64,000 nucleotides of DNA, taken from positions 1 through 64,000 of IMG/VR virus record IMGVR_UViG_3300011187_000006. One strand, written 5' to 3'. Below the pieces are notes generated by a model, which made no database searches, had not been told where the DNA came from, and saw only the letters and a list, made by a program, of their open reading frames with translations. Below are positions 35,958 to 56,111 of this stretch, one piece after another. Position 1 is the first letter of the stretch. Each line of letters starts with the position of its first letter. This DNA comes from an uncultured virus (IMG/VR IMGVR_UViG_3300011187_000006) (lineage: Duplodnaviria > Heunggongvirae > Uroviricota > Caudoviricetes). The translations under genes were made by a program, and so were the position numbers.

Positions 35958-36031
35958 TCGAGAAGACAGGAATCGAACCTGCTAACTGATGCCTCCAATG
36001 CACCCGTGCTTATAACCTTAGTCACTTCTCG
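35958..36031 (-). tRNA. tRNA-Pro(TGG)
   Basis: CGAGAAG/CTTCTCG acceptor; GGTGC-ATTGGAG-GCATC. Confidence 0.78.
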
Positions 36032-36207: not shown

Positions 36208-36246
36208 AAAAAAACTCGGTTAATCTAAAAGACTAACCGAGTTTTT
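36208..36246 (-). terminator. Attenuator terminator upstream of the Asp/Gln/Pro tRNA cluster
   Basis: AAAACTCGGTTAGTC...GATTAACCGAGTTTTTTT on the minus strand. Confidence 0.85.
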
Positions 36247-36264
36247 GTTTTTATTATTTAAATA

Positions 36265-36369
36265 TCAACTTAAATTTAAAACATAGTTAGCACCTTTCGT
36301 ATCAGAATCCTGATCGATATCAACTTGGGGTTGAGGGTTAACTACTATGTTTAAGTTTAAATTTTTCAT
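36265..36369 (-). CDS. Leader peptide MKNLNLNIVVNPQPQVDIDQDSDTKGANYVLNLS
   Basis: 34-aa ORF between promoter and terminator; P/Q/D block matches the downstream tRNAs. Confidence 0.8.
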   Translation of the reverse strand: MKNLNLNIVVNPQPQVDIDQDSDTKGANYVLNLS

Positions 36370-40345: not shown

Positions 40346-40426
40346 TACCCTAGATAGGACTCGAACCTATATTTTCAGCTTCCAATTACCCTTAATTGTT
40401 TAGAAGACAATCGGGACTACTAAGGC
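40346..40426 (-). tRNA. Non-canonical tRNA-Arg(TCT) lacking a D arm
   Basis: GCCTTAG/CTAGGGT acceptor; ATTGT-CTTCTAA-ACAAT only ~8 nt after it; long variable region; normal T arm. Confidence 0.7.
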
Positions 40427-40532: not shown

Positions 40533-41273
40533 TTATATTTTACTATGTATTTCTCTATGACAATTAGAACATAATAAAATACATTTATCAACTTCTTTTT
40601 TTAACCTTTCAAGTGACCAAGACTTTCCGCCGATACTAAAATCTTTTTCATTAGGATCTAAATGATGAAATTCTAAAGCACTTATACATTTAGAATATCC
40701 ACATTTTTCACATTTACCACCTTTATATTCTAGTAGTTCGACTTTCTTTCTTTTTCTCCAAGATACTACATATATTGCTTTTTCTTTCTTTATTTCATCT
40801 TTTGTCATTTTTTTTCTTTTTTTAAGTGTTACATATTTTCGTATAGTACGAAAAGAATGTCCCATTTCTTTACTAACTTTCTTAATACTACCCAACTTAT
40901 CATATTGTGTTCTTATTTCATCTATCTCTGTTTCTGATAATTTACCATATTTACCACAATTTACCAAATCGTGCATTCTACATATTTTAGATATGGACTT
41001 TATTGAAATATTTGTTTTTTCTTTTATATCAGAATAACTTAATTTATTTTTCCTTAATTTTATTACCTCACCAATATCATAGTTTTCTATTAAAAATGAT
41101 TTATCTTTAAACTGTTTCTTATTTTTTTCAATTACATTTTTCAATTTTATTTTATTATTAGATTTTATTTTAGAGCAATGATAAGATACTGTTGATTTAG
41201 AACAGTTTAATTCTTCACATATTGTTTTATAGCTATGTCCCATTTTTCTTAGTTCTAATATTCTTTCTTTCAT
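40533..41273 (-). CDS. HNH endonuclease with N-terminal HTH repeats, inserted in the tRNA cluster
   Basis: CEKCGY...LEFHH...LCSNCHREIH. Confidence 0.88.
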   Translation of the reverse strand: MKERILELRKMGHSYKTICEELNCSKSTVSYHCSKIKSNNKIKLKNVIEKNKKQFKDKSFLIENYDIGEVIKLRKNKLSYSDIKEKTNISIKSISKICRMHDLVNCGKYGKLSETEIDEIRTQYDKLGSIKKVSKEMGHSFRTIRKYVTLKKRKKMTKDEIKKEKAIYVVSWRKRKKVELLEYKGGKCEKCGYSKCISALEFHHLDPNEKDFSIGGKSWSLERLKKEVDKCILLCSNCHREIHSKI

Positions 41274-41344: not shown

Positions 41345-41426
41345 TCGGCACAGTAGGACTCGAACCTACGTTTTCAACTTACCAACTACAGTTCTCCAAG
41401 GTATCAGCTTGGGCTGGTATGTGCCG
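41345..41426 (-). tRNA. Non-canonical tRNA-Ile(GAT) lacking a D arm
   Basis: CGGCACA/TGTGCCG acceptor; CCAAG-CTGATAC-CTTGG 7 nt after it; long variable region; normal T arm. Confidence 0.7.
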
Positions 41427-41612: not shown

Positions 41613-41648
41613 AAAAAAACCCCTAGAATTTTCATTTCTAGGGGTTTT
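41613..41648 (-). terminator. Attenuator terminator upstream of the 10-tRNA cluster
   Basis: AAAACCCCTAGAA...TTCTAGGGGTTTTTTT on the minus strand. Confidence 0.88.
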
Positions 41649-41671
41649 AGTTATTTGTATTTTTTATTTCA

Positions 41672-41791
41672 CTATGTCATAAGATGAAATTTATTAAATA
41701 CACTAGAACCCCTAGATGGTCTATTACATAACATAATATTCACCACATTGAGCGTTAAGTTTCTATTTGTATTTAGGTTTAAATTTTTCAT
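41672..41791 (-). CDS. Leader peptide MKNLNLNTNRNLTLNVVNIMLCNRPSRGSSVFNKFHLMT
   Basis: 39-aa ORF; codons 3-24 use only amino acids of the downstream tRNAs. Confidence 0.82.
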   Translation of the reverse strand: MKNLNLNTNRNLTLNVVNIMLCNRPSRGSSVFNKFHLMT

Positions 41792-49139: not shown

Positions 49140-50375
49140 TTAACTATCAACAAATTCTTGTTTGATTATTTTTATTATCTTCTCAATAGTCACATCCTCT
49201 AAATCTGTCATATTTACAAGTTCACTAAAACCATAAGATAGTAATGATTTAGCAGTATCTATACCAGCTTTTTTAAATTCATTTATTACCCATAAATCAA
49301 CTTCATCAGAAAATTCCATAAGATCTATATCTTCCTCTGTAGCTTGCTCATCATTTATAAGATTTATTTCTAGACCAGTAAGTAAGCTAGTTAATCTTAT
49401 ATTAGAACCTTTCTTACCAATAGCCTTACCAATATCTTCACCATTTAAATGAACGTCAGCTTTACCATCTTCTACCTTTATAAATTTAACAACGGCTGGT
49501 TTTAACGACCTAGTTATATATAAATCCATATTATTTGTGTAGCTTATGATATCTATACTCTCACCATTTAGCTCTCTAGTAACTGCCATTATTCGACTTC
49601 CTCTACTACCAACACAAGTTCCAACAGGATCAATTCTATCATCATATGTTTCCACTGCTACCTTAGCTTTAATACCAGGTACTCTAACTATGTTCTTTAT
49701 ATTTATTAGACCATCGAATATTTCAGGTATTTCTTGTTCCATTATTCTTTCTAGAAACTTACTTGATGTTCTTGATGCAATAATGTATGGCTTATTGTTT
49801 CTAATTTCAGCTTCTTCTACCACAAATGATATTGTATCACCTTTTCTGTAAAACTCACCAGGTATCTGATTATCTTTTGGTAAACAAATTTCAATACCCT
49901 CATCATCTAGTAATATAACCATATTTCTTTTTATGTGATGGACTTCGGCATTGAAAATATATCCAATCATATCTTCAAACTTCTCTATTGTTGATTTATT
50001 TTCGTAGTCTTTTATTCTAGCCTTTAGATTCTGTCTTAAACTTAATATAGATCTTCTTCCTAATTCTGATATTTTGAATTCTTGTGGATATTCTTCCCCT
50101 ATTTCAAAATCTGACTCCACCTTAAGAACTTCTGAAATTTCTATTTCAGTATTGTGGTTTTCAACCTCGCCATCTTGTACAACGATTTTGTTTTGCCATA
50201 TTTCTAAATCTCCGTTATCTGGGTTTAGAATTATATCAAAGTTTTCATCTGTATCATATTTTTTTCTAAACTCAAATCTAAAAACAGAGTCTAGGATTTC
50301 CATTATCTCTATTTTATTAATCATTTTGTCTGACTTAAGCTCAGTAAATGAATCTATAATTGATGTGTTATTCAT
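49140..50375 (-). CDS. nusA: Transcription termination/antitermination factor NusA
   Basis: S1 and KH domains: EIPEIFDG, RIDPVGTCVGSRGSRI and AIGKKGSNIRL. Confidence 0.95.
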   Translation of the reverse strand: MNNTSIIDSFTELKSDKMINKIEIMEILDSVFRFEFRKKYDTDENFDIILNPDNGDLEIWQNKIVVQDGEVENHNTEIEISEVLKVESDFEIGEEYPQEFKISELGRRSILSLRQNLKARIKDYENKSTIEKFEDMIGYIFNAEVHHIKRNMVILLDDEGIEICLPKDNQIPGEFYRKGDTISFVVEEAEIRNNKPYIIASRTSSKFLERIMEQEIPEIFDGLINIKNIVRVPGIKAKVAVETYDDRIDPVGTCVGSRGSRIMAVTRELNGESIDIISYTNNMDLYITRSLKPAVVKFIKVEDGKADVHLNGEDIGKAIGKKGSNIRLTSLLTGLEINLINDEQATEEDIDLMEFSDEVDLWVINEFKKAGIDTAKSLLSYGFSELVNMTDLEDVTIEKIIKIIKQEFVDS

Positions 50376-51542: not shown

Positions 51543-52298
51543 TTAAATTACTCTTAAAGACTTTATCCAATTTTTAACATTAAAAGATGGACATGCTTTT
51601 GATGAAAATTCATTATGTCCATGAAATGTTATTCTAGGTAATTTATGTTTAAAAGCTCTATAAATGGTTTCATAGACATCCTTTTGCTTTTTAGTTATAT
51701 TATCCAATGCTCTACCATTTCGGTCAACACCACCAATATATGATATATTTATAGTAGTAGAATTGATACCACGAACACCATTAGAGACTCTGTTAAAGTC
51801 TAGTAGTTGATTCCAAGTTCCATCTGGCCTAACAATTATATGATAACCTGGTGAACGCCACCCAAGTGTATTCTTCCAATAATTCACAATGGCAGATACA
51901 GTAGCTTTTTGAGATGTTGCAGTACAATGGAAAACAAGCCTTTTTATATTCCTAGTAATATCACTAGATTCTATTAGGTTTATAAGTTCCCTTGTACTAG
52001 GGGACAAAGGTTGTGTTTCCTCAATATCTTCTACACAGAACATACACTCTGGATCAGATACAGAATCTTCTTCGTTTAGATCAACATCGTAAATTGGTCT
52101 TATTCTATTCTTATCGTTTTTTACTAAAACAGACCAAGTATTAGGACCAACTATACCATCTACGCTTAATCCATTATCTCTTTGAAAATTCTTCAAAGCT
52201 TTCAAAGTGTTAGGACCAAATATACCATCAGGTTTTAGTCCTAACAAGTTTTGTAAATCCTTAACTTTTTCTCCTCTACTTCTAAATCTTATAATCAT
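51543..52298 (-). CDS. Endolysin: peptidoglycan-binding domain plus N-acetylmuramoyl-L-alanine amidase (T7 lysozyme-like)
   Basis: DGIFGPNT/DGIVGPNTW; FHCTAT, GYH, YIGG and GHNEF..KACPSF. Confidence 0.9.
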   Translation of the reverse strand: MIIRFRSRGEKVKDLQNLLGLKPDGIFGPNTLKALKNFQRDNGLSVDGIVGPNTWSVLVKNDKNRIRPIYDVDLNEEDSVSDPECMFCVEDIEETQPLSPSTRELINLIESSDITRNIKRLVFHCTATSQKATVSAIVNYWKNTLGWRSPGYHIIVRPDGTWNQLLDFNRVSNGVRGINSTTINISYIGGVDRNGRALDNITKKQKDVYETIYRAFKHKLPRITFHGHNEFSSKACPSFNVKNWIKSLRVI

Positions 52299-52591
52299 AA
52301 TAATATGTACATTTTCTCTATATATATATTATTAATATGTTTCTAAGAAATCTCCATTAATGAATCACCACCATAAACTATCACATCTACTGAATTTGTT
52401 AGCTTAGAAATCGGTGACATGTCCACAATATCAACAACTCACCTATCTATAGTGAAGCTTTGATATTTTCTAGCCTGATGATTTTTAGACAACTTCTCCA
52501 ATTCATCTGATGCAAATTTAGTAATTACTCCTCTCTCTATCTATCTCGCACTCAAATCTTCTATAATTATTGTTTTTTTTTAATTAAGCTG

Positions 52592-52669
52592 TGGAGGATA
52601 TCGGATTTGAACCGATGTATGACACAGCTTGCAAAGCTATCGCTTACGACCAGACTGAGCTAATCCCCC
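52592..52669 (-). tRNA. tRNA-Ala(TGC)
   Basis: G3:U70 acceptor pair; ATAGC-TTTGCAA-GCTGT. Confidence 0.85.
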
Positions 52670-52677
52670 CATTAATG

Positions 52678-52751
52678 AGCAAATGATAGGATTCGAACCT
52701 ACAACTTTCTGAATGGAAATCAGACACTCTAGCCAATTGAGCTACATTTGC
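52678..52751 (-). tRNA. tRNA-Gly(TCC)
   Basis: TCTGA-TTTCCAT-TCAGA. Confidence 0.87.
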
Positions 52752-52762
52752 ATTTTATATCG

Positions 52763-52836
52763 AGCAGGTAATCGGGATCAAACCGATTCTATTCTAGCTT
52801 GGAAGGCTAGTGCACCATCACTTATGCGTTACCTGC
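52763..52836 (-). tRNA. tRNA-Gly(TCC)
   Basis: CTAGC-CTTCCAA-GCTAG. Confidence 0.8.
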
Positions 52837-52844
52837 TTATTTTG

Positions 52845-52918
52845 TTGGTATGATGGGTATCGAACCCACTATCTCATGGATATAAGCCATGTGCTTTTAC
52901 CATCTAAGCTACATACCA
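52845..52918 (-). tRNA. tRNA-Ile(TAT)
   Basis: CATGG-CTTATAT-CCATG. Confidence 0.85.
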
Positions 52919-52932
52919 ATTTATAATAAAAT

Positions 52933-52961
52933 AAAAAACCCAGTCATTTCTGACTGGGTTT
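52933..52961 (-). terminator. Attenuator terminator upstream of the Ile/Gly/Gly/Ala cluster
   Basis: AAACCCAGTCA-GAAA-TGACTGGGTTTTTT on the minus strand. Confidence 0.88.
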
Positions 52962-52984
52962 ATGATAATTTATAATTAAATTAA

Positions 52985-53059
52985 TTACATAACAATTCCC
53001 AGCCAATGAGTTTTCCCTTTGCCTATCGCTATTATTGCTATGTTATTAATTGTTCTCAT
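52985..53059 (-). CDS. Leader peptide MRTINNIAIIAIGKGKTHWLGIVM
   Basis: 24-aa ORF; ATA GCA ATA ATA GCG ATA GGC AAA GGG block. Confidence 0.8.
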   Translation of the reverse strand: MRTINNIAIIAIGKGKTHWLGIVM

Positions 53060-53106
53060 AATTGTTATATTACACTATATATTAAAAGTTTACTCTCCCT
53101 CTTAAA

Positions 53107-53325
53107 TTAATCTGTATTTTCTAAAATTTTAATCTGTATTTCTGTTCCTTCATAATCAAATCCTCTCTGATAGGTAGGATTTAGATAGTCTTCAAAACTA
53201 TTAAAAGATACTTCTCTAAATATCCCTTTATGGTAAGTTTTCAGTCTTGGTCGATTACCTCGATGTAACAAATCATGTTTTATGTCGAATTCGCCAATTC
53301 CTTCTATCTCTATTTTTAAAACCAT
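53107..53325 (-). CDS. Small hypothetical protein
   Basis: ORF track. Confidence 0.5.
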   Translation of the reverse strand: MVLKIEIEGIGEFDIKHDLLHRGNRPRLKTYHKGIFREVSFNSFEDYLNPTYQRGFDYEGTEIQIKILENTD

Positions 53326-53578
53326 AATAATTTATTTTTGTAATTCAATTTCTTTTAATATCCTTTTCGGATAAAAAAACGAAAAATGTGTCTTAGCTTG
53401 CTCAACATTGTAGGCTTTAAATACACATTTATGTATTTTTTTACCAGTCTTATAAACATATACACACTTAAAATCTTGTATTGTGTTTTTTTCCATTTAA
53501 AAGCTTTTTAAAATTAAATAATAGGCAAATATAAGCATTATATTATTATAATCCTATTTTAAACAATATTTAAATTAG

Positions 53579-53757: not shown

Positions 53758-53794
53758 AAAAAACCCAGTCTATATTACTAGACTGGGTTTTTTT
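53758..53794 (-). terminator. Attenuator terminator upstream of the Tyr/Glu tRNAs
   Basis: AAACCCAGTCTA...TAGACTGGGTTTTTT. Confidence 0.88.
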
Positions 53795-53810
53795 TATACT
53801 ATAATTTAAT

Positions 53811-53894
53811 TTACATTATAGACATCAAAAGACTAGCCGAGCGTTTTCGTTCAGATTCTTCATAATAATATTCTATGTTAGTAAAAGTATTCAT
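53811..53894 (-). CDS. Leader peptide MNTFTNIEYYYEESERKRSASLLMSIM
   Basis: 27-aa ORF; GAA TAT TAT TAT GAA GAA TCT GAA block. Confidence 0.82.
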   Translation of the reverse strand: MNTFTNIEYYYEESERKRSASLLMSIM

Positions 53895-53914
53895 TTTATT
53901 TATTTATTTATTTG

Positions 53915-53987
53915 TAGCGGGAGTTGGACTCGAACCAACGACCTCTAGGTTATGAGCCTAGCGAGCTACCTACTGCTCTACCCCGCG
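53915..53987 (-). tRNA. tRNA-Met(CAT), initiator-like
   Basis: CGCGGGG start with unpaired position 1:72; CTAGG-CTCATAA-CCTAG. Confidence 0.88.
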
Positions 53988-55694: not shown

Positions 55695-56111
55695 TTATTG
55701 GTTATAAATTTCTCTAAAATATTTAGACACTAACTTCTTATCTGCTGGTAATTTACTAAACTTTTTCATAATACCACCTATGTTATCAACACCATCTTTT
55801 ATAAATTGTGAAACTTTCTCTTTTATCTCAATTTCGCTCATTTCTTTAGGAAGATACTTAGATATAATCTCAAGTTCTTCTTTAGCTACTTCATCACCAT
55901 TTGATAAGCTTTCCTTTAAAGATTTAGTCATCTTATTTAAAATTTTAGTAACTTCCTTATCAGATAGTGTTTCTACTCGCATATTCTTCTCTAATGTTTG
56001 AATTTCGCCTTTGACTACTGATAGAAGCTTTTTATCTAAATCTTTTCTAGCTTTAAAAGCCATCATGTAATCTTTACTGATTTCTTCCTTTAATGATAAT
56101 TTGTTTGACAT
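55695..56111 (-). CDS. GatB/YqeY domain protein
   Basis: LKEEI..D...AFKAR, ELEIISKYLP and IGGIMK motifs. Confidence 0.85.
   Translation of the reverse strand: MSNKLSLKEEISKDYMMAFKARKDLDKKLLSVVKGEIQTLEKNMRVETLSDKEVTKILNKMTKSLKESLSNGDEVAKEELEIISKYLPKEMSEIEIKEKVSQFIKDGVDNIGGIMKKFSKLPADKKLVSKYFREIYNQ

Follow-up and report, generated by a model that had tools for sequence, protein, structure and literature searches.

The leader-peptide attenuators of the amino-acid operons (trpL, hisL, leuL, thrL, ilvL and pheL) combine a short leader containing regulatory codons with alternative 1:2, 2:3 and 3:4 helices and a hairpin followed by a U-run. The pheST synthetase operon also carries a leader-peptide attenuator, and the thr and ilv leaders are multivalent, each covering several amino acids. 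T-box riboswitches (RF00230) sense the status of tRNA and switch between a terminator and an antiterminator in front of translation-related genes. In the model of pheL attenuation, as outlined in the literature, segments 1 to 4 form alternative helices and a ribosome stalled at the regulatory codons frees segment 2 (PMC3082878; PMC1183508).

The tRNA operons described here resemble the leader-peptide attenuators in their build, and it appears from their sequences that a textbook leader-peptide switch controls the tRNA genes themselves. They lie in a window of 64,000 nucleotides (the whole stretch of DNA that was analysed) belonging to a 78.7-kb virus contig of 28.7% G+C with a completeness rating of about 11%, whose nearest relatives in public data, of 635-642 kb, are uncultured phages. 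The leader region of the tRNA-Ile(UAU) operon has matches in 24 DNA runs from lake and salt-lake metagenomes; no RNA run is among the run matches listed. Quite probably, this leader unit would act as a ribosome-mediated transcription attenuator gating a four-gene operon (Ile-UAU, Gly-UCC twice, Ala-UGC).

The leader ORF and its surroundings

The anatomy of the Ile(UAU) leader unit can be read directly from the DNA, all of its features being on the minus strand. Upstream of the tRNA genes lies a short start-to-stop ORF (53059..52985) of 24 codons plus the stop, beginning with ATG and encoding the peptide MRTINNIAIIAIGKGKTHWLGIVM. Its codons are ATG AGA ACA ATT AAT AAC ATA GCA ATA ATA GCG ATA GGC AAA GGG AAA ACT CAT TGG CTG GGA ATT GTT ATG TAA. 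Codons 7-15 form the sensor block (53041..53015; ATA GCA ATA ATA GCG ATA GGC AAA GGG), in which the regulatory codons are clustered and cognate to what the operon supplies: eight of the nine specify Ile, Ala or Gly. In the sensor window of this leader, nine of 16 codons are cognate to these three amino acids, against a background of 0.17 (p = 4e-4). The match has its irregularities. GGC is present although the downstream Gly genes are Gly(UCC) only, and AAA occurs twice, on either side of the GGG, although tRNA-Lys is absent downstream. The sequence-only reading was right that ATA encodes all four Ile residues of codons 7-15; it omitted the two ATT codons outside the block, at positions 4 and 22. 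Homologous leader ORFs, in frame, precede the tRNA-Ile(UAU) operons of five other genomes or contigs (L001, L008, L013, L027 and L032).

Comparison of four DNA runs yielded strain variants only, among them a 1-nt deletion at 53011 in the strains of runs X6 and X14. It falls within the AAAA loop of the 1:2 hairpin (see below), changes the tail of the peptide to LIGWELLCN and moves the stop 4 nt further on, while the sensor block and segment 2 are unchanged. Since the deletion changes the whole tail and spares the sensor and segment 2, it suggests that conservation is not directed at the peptide sequence as such. Such a variant would fit an element that acts through translation and folding, and not through its peptide.

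A candidate promoter-like motif, GGGAGAGTAAACTTTTAATATATAG (53075..53099), is found 16 nt upstream of the leader ATG. In L001 and L005 the homologous leaders are likewise preceded by motifs of this kind (GGGAG..AAACTTTTT.ATATATA), and so are the tRNA-Met genes of the window and of L001. A sigma-70 promoter scan gave no more sites than it did in shuffled sequences.

The first gated gene had been read as tRNA-Ile(TAT), and this holds: the gene at 52918..52844, which starts 8 nt after the T-run of the terminator, is called with anticodon tat by ARAGORN and scores 67.3 bits with the Rfam tRNA model, as a cloverleaf tRNA with anticodon UAU. It is followed on the same strand by a divergent, Gly-like tRNA with anticodon UCC (52836..52763; Rfam 44 bits; anticodon loop CUUCCAA, T-loop UUUGAUC), by tRNA-Gly(UCC) (52751..52677; ARAGORN, Rfam 70.5 bits) and by tRNA-Ala(UGC) (52669..52591; ARAGORN, Rfam 50.2 bits). 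The divergent gene brings the operon to four and was omitted from the earlier account; ARAGORN does not call it, low thresholds included. The same arrangement is seen in a second operon of the window: both this gene and that at 36031..35958 (minus strand) are second, divergent tRNA copies having the same anticodon as their canonical neighbour, the duplicated anticodons being Gly UCC and Pro UGG (the latter assigned by eye).

Several neighbouring genes may be mentioned. The gene immediately 3' of tRNA-Ala (51543..52298, minus strand) encodes a peptidoglycan-binding N-acetylmuramoyl-L-alanine amidase, and that of a YqeY-like protein (52.7 bits; 55695..56111, minus strand) lies upstream of the tRNA region. 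A NusA homologue (NusA_N 82 bits, NusA-like KH 85 bits) is encoded at 49140..50375, on the same strand as the Ile(UAU) operon and 2.2 kb downstream of it. NusA influences pausing and hairpin termination, and the phage homologue could serve attenuators.

Alternative pairings of the leader RNA

A predicted intrinsic terminator (52961..52927) separates the ORF from the tRNA genes. Its hairpin (52961..52936; segments 3 and 4) begins 23 nt past the leader stop and has arms AAACCCAGTCA and TGACTGGGTTT closed by a GAAA loop, forming 11 pairs, five of them G-C (-17.1 kcal/mol), and it is followed by a T-run. Segment 1 (UAGGCAAAGGG, 53015..53025) coincides with the end of the sensor block and pairs with segment 2 in the minimum-free-energy folds of the ribosome-free RNA. 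Segment 2 (CUCAUUGGCUGGGA, 52997..53010) has as its core UUGGCUGGGA, the antiterminator strand, at ORF codons 18-21. That a segment of the ORF, UGGCUGGG (53005..52998), can pair with the terminator arm CCCAGUCA had been proposed from the letters alone, and it does so. The best antiterminator duplex, UUGGCUGGGA with ACCCAGUCAG, has an energy of -14.4 kcal/mol (z = -4.1), compared with -7.4 +/- 1.7 kcal/mol in dinucleotide shuffles, two of 300 shuffles reaching this value. The UGGCUG of segment 2 is present in all homologues, though CTG makes up 1% of Leu codons. The energies of the 1:2, 2:3 (as a hairpin) and 3:4 helices are -6.4, -10.5 and -17.1 kcal/mol, respectively, which is the order expected for an attenuator. 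The leader ORF is thus predicted to have the 1:2 / 2:3 / 3:4 layout of a leader-peptide attenuator.

Equilibrium folding invariably favours the terminator, whether or not a ribosome footprint is masked. The switch must therefore be kinetic, which is assumed here as it has been for classical attenuators. Because the equilibrium folds never removed the terminator, the switch was judged on nascent RNA, folded up to the terminator loop with the 3' arm absent and the ribosome footprint masked. With the A-site on any of codons 3-15, seven or eight nucleotides of the terminator 5' arm pair with segment 2. The number drops to 0-6 for positions between codon 16 and the stop (0-2 from codon 18), and a ribosome that has come to the end of the leader is predicted to occlude the pairing that excludes the terminator. 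In ribosome-free nascent RNA, segment 2 is tied up and the 5' arm of the terminator left free; the 1:2 helix that would hold segment 2 is present in the minimum-free-energy fold of the nascent RNA, albeit weak (-6.4 kcal/mol). The earlier proposal of a translated leader that gates the tRNAs through a terminator/antiterminator switch is supported computationally, by the duplex energy, the helix energies and the simulation on nascent RNA.

In the attenuator model, transcription would start just upstream of the ORF and a ribosome would translate the 24-codon leader. If codons 7-15 (ATA, GCA/GCG, GGC/GGG) were decoded fast, the ribosome would move to the tail and the stop and cover segment 2 (UUGGCUGGGA); the terminator hairpin would then form and RNA polymerase would halt 8 nt short of tRNA-Ile. 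If charged cognate tRNA were scarce, whether because the host supplies little, the phage demands much or tRNAs are damaged, the ribosome would stall on the sensor block. Segment 2 would then be free to pair with the terminator's 5' arm as it emerges, and the polymerase would read into the tRNA genes. The new tRNAs would speed up decoding and close the switch, which would amount to a negative feedback on decoding capacity. If the leader were not translated, segment 1 would hold segment 2 and the terminator would form. Anatomy, complementarity, conservation and statistics are what the sequences show; that the ORF is translated, that transcription ends at the hairpin and that a stall acts as described are the steps that we infer in this model. 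Its consequence would be that the phage probably makes the Ile, Gly and Ala tRNAs only when ribosomes read the matching codons slowly.

Two other accounts of the hairpin have to be weighed. According to the first, it is an ordinary terminator of the upstream genes (53496..53107), the tRNA genes are expressed on their own and the short ORF is a small frame that is there by chance or for unrelated reasons. This would agree with the persistence of the terminator in every equilibrium fold and with the finding that, at most of 28 loci, hairpins of this sequence class are plain terminators, in many cases bidirectional, with no tRNA behind them. However, the 8 nt between the T-run and tRNA-Ile leave no room for a promoter, and the leader codons discussed below speak further against it. 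According to the second account, the translated leader does sense decoding speed but acts through Rho access, through RNase P or RNase E processing, or through the stability of the precursor. The same 8-nt spacing makes it conceivable that folding of the leader affects 5' processing, and the phage-encoded NusA hints at altered elongation control. Yet the G+C-rich hairpin, the T-run and the mutually exclusive pairing are conserved and co-vary, and these are needed by a switch based on intrinsic termination and not by control of processing; we consider this second account unlikely.

Codon content of the sister leaders

The Ile(UAU) unit is one of four leader-gated tRNA blocks in the window, and each of the four is preceded by a codon-matched leader. 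The only ungated tRNA gene is tRNA-Met (53987..53914), which has a 1:72 mismatch and lies upstream of the Tyr/Glu leader. The other three units are likewise on the minus strand. In the first (53759..53894), the leader MNTFTNIEYYYEESERKRSASLLMSIM (53894..53811), whose peptide carries EYYYEESE, and a terminator (53792..53759) precede tRNA-Tyr and tRNA-Glu. In the second (41616..41791), the leader MKNLNLNTNRNLTLNVVNIMLC... (41791..41672) and a terminator (41648..41616) precede ten tRNA genes split by an HNH gene, with NLNLNTNRNLTLNVVNIMLCNR ahead of tRNAs for Leu, Asn, Ile, Arg, Val, Cys, Thr and Met. Here 22 of 23 sensor codons are cognate, and the antiterminator duplex has an energy of -17.3 (z = -5.2). 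This ten-tRNA leader had been cited as using ATT for its Ile(GAT); its sole Ile codon is indeed ATT, and the Ile(GAT) gene itself (41426..41345) has no D-arm and scores 28.8 bits in Rfam, just below the cut-off of 29. In the third unit (36210..36369), the leader MKNLNLNIVVNPQPQVDIDQDSD... (36369..36265) and a terminator (36246..36210) are found with PQPQVDIDQDSD ahead of tRNAs Asp, Gln, Pro-like, Asp, Gln and Pro.

The content of the leader codons tracks that of the tRNA operon across genomes. In relatives of the phage, the leader HKHFSKSSKWF precedes Phe, His, Lys and Trp tRNAs, SKSSSSRSSR precedes Arg and Ser tRNAs, and QYQQQQQ precedes a Gln tRNA. L047 has the leader IGYIAEGGYEAG ahead of Glu, Tyr and Gly tRNAs, and L013 has a fused leader, IACYYEGG, ahead of a Tyr-like gene, recognised by eye alone, and of Ile(UAU), Gly and Glu tRNAs. 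Homologous leaders differ in length by whole codons. Leaders of unrelated operons begin alike, with M-(K/N/R/T)-(N/T)-x-x-N-I at the N-terminus and AAC ATA in the DNA, and two leaders of the window (b and c) have their first seven codons and upstream motifs in common. This suggests that the leader family may have arisen by duplication, with the sensor block rewritten.

The operons contain a number of unusual tRNA genes, whose anticodons were taken from Rfam alignments or by eye, as ARAGORN at low thresholds did not resolve them. One conserved tRNA-like class comprises window genes 41426..41345 and 40426..40346 (minus strand) and L008 8666-8744, L013 5312-5390 and L017 2712-2792. Its acceptor and T arms are normal, its D-arm is nearly absent (4 nt versus 15 in the Rfam model), its anticodon hairpins read GAU, UCU and UCG, and an extra region of about 23 nt contains the D-loop-like AGTTGGTA. 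Members are missed by ARAGORN, score 28.8-39 bits in Rfam and have anticodons that fit the ATT and AGA codons of the leaders. Other tRNA matches, of 106-124 nt with long insertions past the anticodon region (L001 3701-3824; L012 699-811, 1459-1564 and 2225-2346), may represent intron-bearing tRNA genes of the relatives. HNH endonuclease genes with HTH domains also occur inside tRNA operons, at 40533..41273 (minus strand) in the window, where one splits the ten-tRNA block, and from about 4813 onward in L001, where one splits the Ile/Gly...Ala block of that relative.

Twenty-two leaders, drawn from four genomes, together contain 417 sensor codons; at the amino-acid level, 221 of these are cognate to the downstream tRNAs. 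When the tRNA sets were swapped among leaders within a genome, the mean was 84 and the maximum 163, and none of 20,000 permutations reached 221. Counted in frames 0, +1 and +2, the cognate codons number 221, 84 and 56 of 417, respectively. An enlarged set holds 64 terminator-plus-tRNA units, of which 11 have no ORF by the rule used; this leaves 53 leaders, 46 of them unique. Among the latter, downstream tRNAs are matched by 469 of 903 sensor codons and 89 of 443 tail codons.

The antiterminator pairing beats its own shuffle mean in 21 of the 22 leaders, with means of -11.7 for the leader's own terminator arm and -7.8 for the arm of another. The exception is the Tyr/Glu leader of the window, for which no convincing antiterminator was found (-4.4 versus a shuffle mean of -5.7). 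In the ten-tRNA leader family a compensatory change is seen, the window having UCUAGGGGUU paired with AACCCCUAGA and the relatives CUGAGGGUU with AACCCUCAG. A codon match that is far beyond chance, specific to the reading frame and follows operon content across genomes, together with significant segment 2 complementarity between sensor and stop in 21 of 22 leaders, is not what an ordinary terminator of the upstream genes predicts, and we judge that account highly improbable.

It may also be asked whether tRNA anticodons themselves read the codon run, as in a T-box, without a ribosome. The position of the leaders before genes of the translation apparatus, and the fact that tRNA is the relevant ligand, would suit such a reading. 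At the gathering cut-offs, however, Rfam finds nothing but tRNA matches in the window and no leader families; for the leader region, no T-box match (RF00230) is listed up to an E-value of 10, and Thr_leader (RF00506; 14.6 bits, cut-off 55) and Trp_leader (RF00513; 14.5 bits, cut-off 41) score far below their thresholds. The leader region thus matches neither the T-box nor any other leader family. Moreover, the runs are framed by ATG and stop, are frame-specific and string together many different codons one after another, and among homologues their lengths differ in steps of whole codons. Direct reading by anticodons seems the least probable of the alternatives, with hardly any likelihood left to it.

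Whether the match extends beyond the amino acid to the codon is a separate matter. The use of ATA had been taken to point to sensing at the isoacceptor level. This part of the argument does not stand for the Ile(UAU) leader by itself: in the contig's long ORFs ATA is the codon used for 61% of Ile residues and makes up 5.5% of codons overall, the chance of four ATA out of four in the block is 0.61^4, or about 0.14, and the whole leader ORF, with four ATA and two ATT, is at background. Because ATA is the phage's commonest Ile codon, its choice in this leader alone is not beyond chance; in addition, the ATA at codon 7 is part of the AAC ATA motif common to leaders whatever tRNAs follow. The claim is carried instead by the comparison of relatives. 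Sensor windows of the six unique leaders of Ile(UAU)-only operons contain 17 ATA and six ATT/ATC, whereas those of the 11 unique leaders of Ile(GAU) operons contain no ATA and 21 ATT/ATC (Fisher 1.6e-7, uncorrected for shared descent). ATA is not simply avoided in the leaders of Ile(GAU) operons, since their tails hold three ATA to one ATT/ATC. A similar contrast is found for Arg, with 13 AGR to one CGN where the tRNAs are UCU/CCU versus two to seven where they are ACG/UCG (p = 0.001). The p-values for both amino acids overstate independence because each contrast compares two homologous leader families, and the operon contents behind these counts are blurred by locus ends and by tRNAs that ARAGORN missed.

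For Gly and Ser the match stops at the amino acid. Gly leaders followed by UCC tRNAs only have five GGR and five GGY, Ser leaders for which only TCN readers were found have ten AGY and ten TCN, and among Gly, Ser, Leu, Glu and Lys no codon-level match was found where the test was informative. The comparison of leader sequences thus supports tuning of the clade's leader codons beyond the amino acid for Ile and Arg, with ATA accompanying a UAU tRNA and ATT/ATC a GAU tRNA. For Ile in particular, codon-level tuning in this phage clade is a reading towards which we lean, though with moderate conviction.

The sensor windows of the 22 leaders also show a strong excess of the rare G-ending codons GTG, GCG, ACG, CCG and GGG, plus GGC. 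In the four-fold boxes, GTG accounts for eight of eight codons, GCG for four of five, ACG for five of 14 and CCG for four of 12, and GGT is absent from these windows though it makes up 57% of the contig's Gly codons. Such rare codons could sharpen the sensitivity of the leaders or serve RNA structure.

AUA decoding and comparison with known systems

As described in the part of the literature that bears on this point, many bacteria read AUA by means of the lysidine made by TilS, whereas in M. mobile AUA is read by an unmodified UAU tRNA (PMC3575796). According to the same source, such a tRNA is a poor substrate of E. coli IleRS and does not tell AUA from AUG on the ribosomes of that species; both its charging and its reading of AUA versus AUG depend on IleRS and the ribosome (PMC3575796). 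The sequence-only reading had supposed that a UAU tRNA would bypass the host's TilS. This idea is weakened by the poor charging noted for E. coli IleRS (PMC3575796) and by the genes of the relatives. Two of these (G001 and LR745206.1) encode a protein of 195 aa consisting of the TilS N-domain only (105 and 108 bits, cut-off 93.6), and the genes lie near the tRNA operons; the TilS/IleRS loci are L124 331-918, L125 306-893 and L126 248-2455. LR745206.1 also encodes an IleRS of 735 aa (674 bits, cut-off 621) that aligns to model positions 2-803 of 861 and seems to be without the C-terminal end. In L001 and L032 the Ile(UAU) operons also include Met(CAT) genes, which might be lysidine-type Ile tRNAs. 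Judging by the TilS-like and IleRS genes, the lineage seems not so much to bypass TilS as to bring along several components of AUA decoding. The M. mobile tRNA-Ile(UAU) resembles the phage gene in having a UAU anticodon that needs no lysidine, but in that organism, according to the passages concerned, IleRS and the ribosome are adapted to the UAU tRNA (PMC3575796), whereas in the phage clade a TilS N-domain is found in two relatives and an IleRS in one.

These observations can be drawn together in a broader proposal, which we put forward tentatively and hold to be somewhat short of an even chance. The giant-phage clade might run a codon-resolved bank of attenuators as a decoding homeostat, each tRNA operon being switched separately by slow reading of its own codons, with isoacceptor resolution for Ile (AUA versus AUY) and Arg (AGR versus CGN). 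Such a bank could detect and repair gaps in the host tRNA pool, including those caused by tRNA-cutting defences, and the AUA module, together with the TilS-like protein and IleRS of the relatives, would make AUA decoding self-contained. If the tRNA operons are indeed controlled by their leaders, this would account for how tRNA-rich phages keep from producing superfluous tRNAs and would provide a direct sequence-level readout of the codons for which a phage anticipates limitation in the host. The leaders would then be natural, compact, codon-specific sensors of decoding speed, which, as the contrasts of ATA with ATT/ATC and of AGR with CGN suggest, can tell isoacceptors apart.

No description of leader-peptide control of tRNA genes, in phages or in cells, was found in open-access PMC and bioRxiv. 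An attenuator-like, Phe-rich leader ahead of the tRNA-Phe genes of E. coli was considered as a precedent and rejected: the K-12 regions upstream of pheV and pheU contain no such ORF or terminator. T-box riboswitches read tRNA through a specifier loop, whereas the phage leader would do so through a ribosome on an ORF. The attenuators of the amino-acid operons gate enzymes, whereas the units described here gate tRNAs, occur in a phage and have no sequence match to the Rfam leaders, and the phage leaders mix up to eight amino acids each to fit their operon. Since the gated genes are tRNAs, the product is also the sensed molecule, and the loop would close on decoding capacity, not on amino-acid supply.
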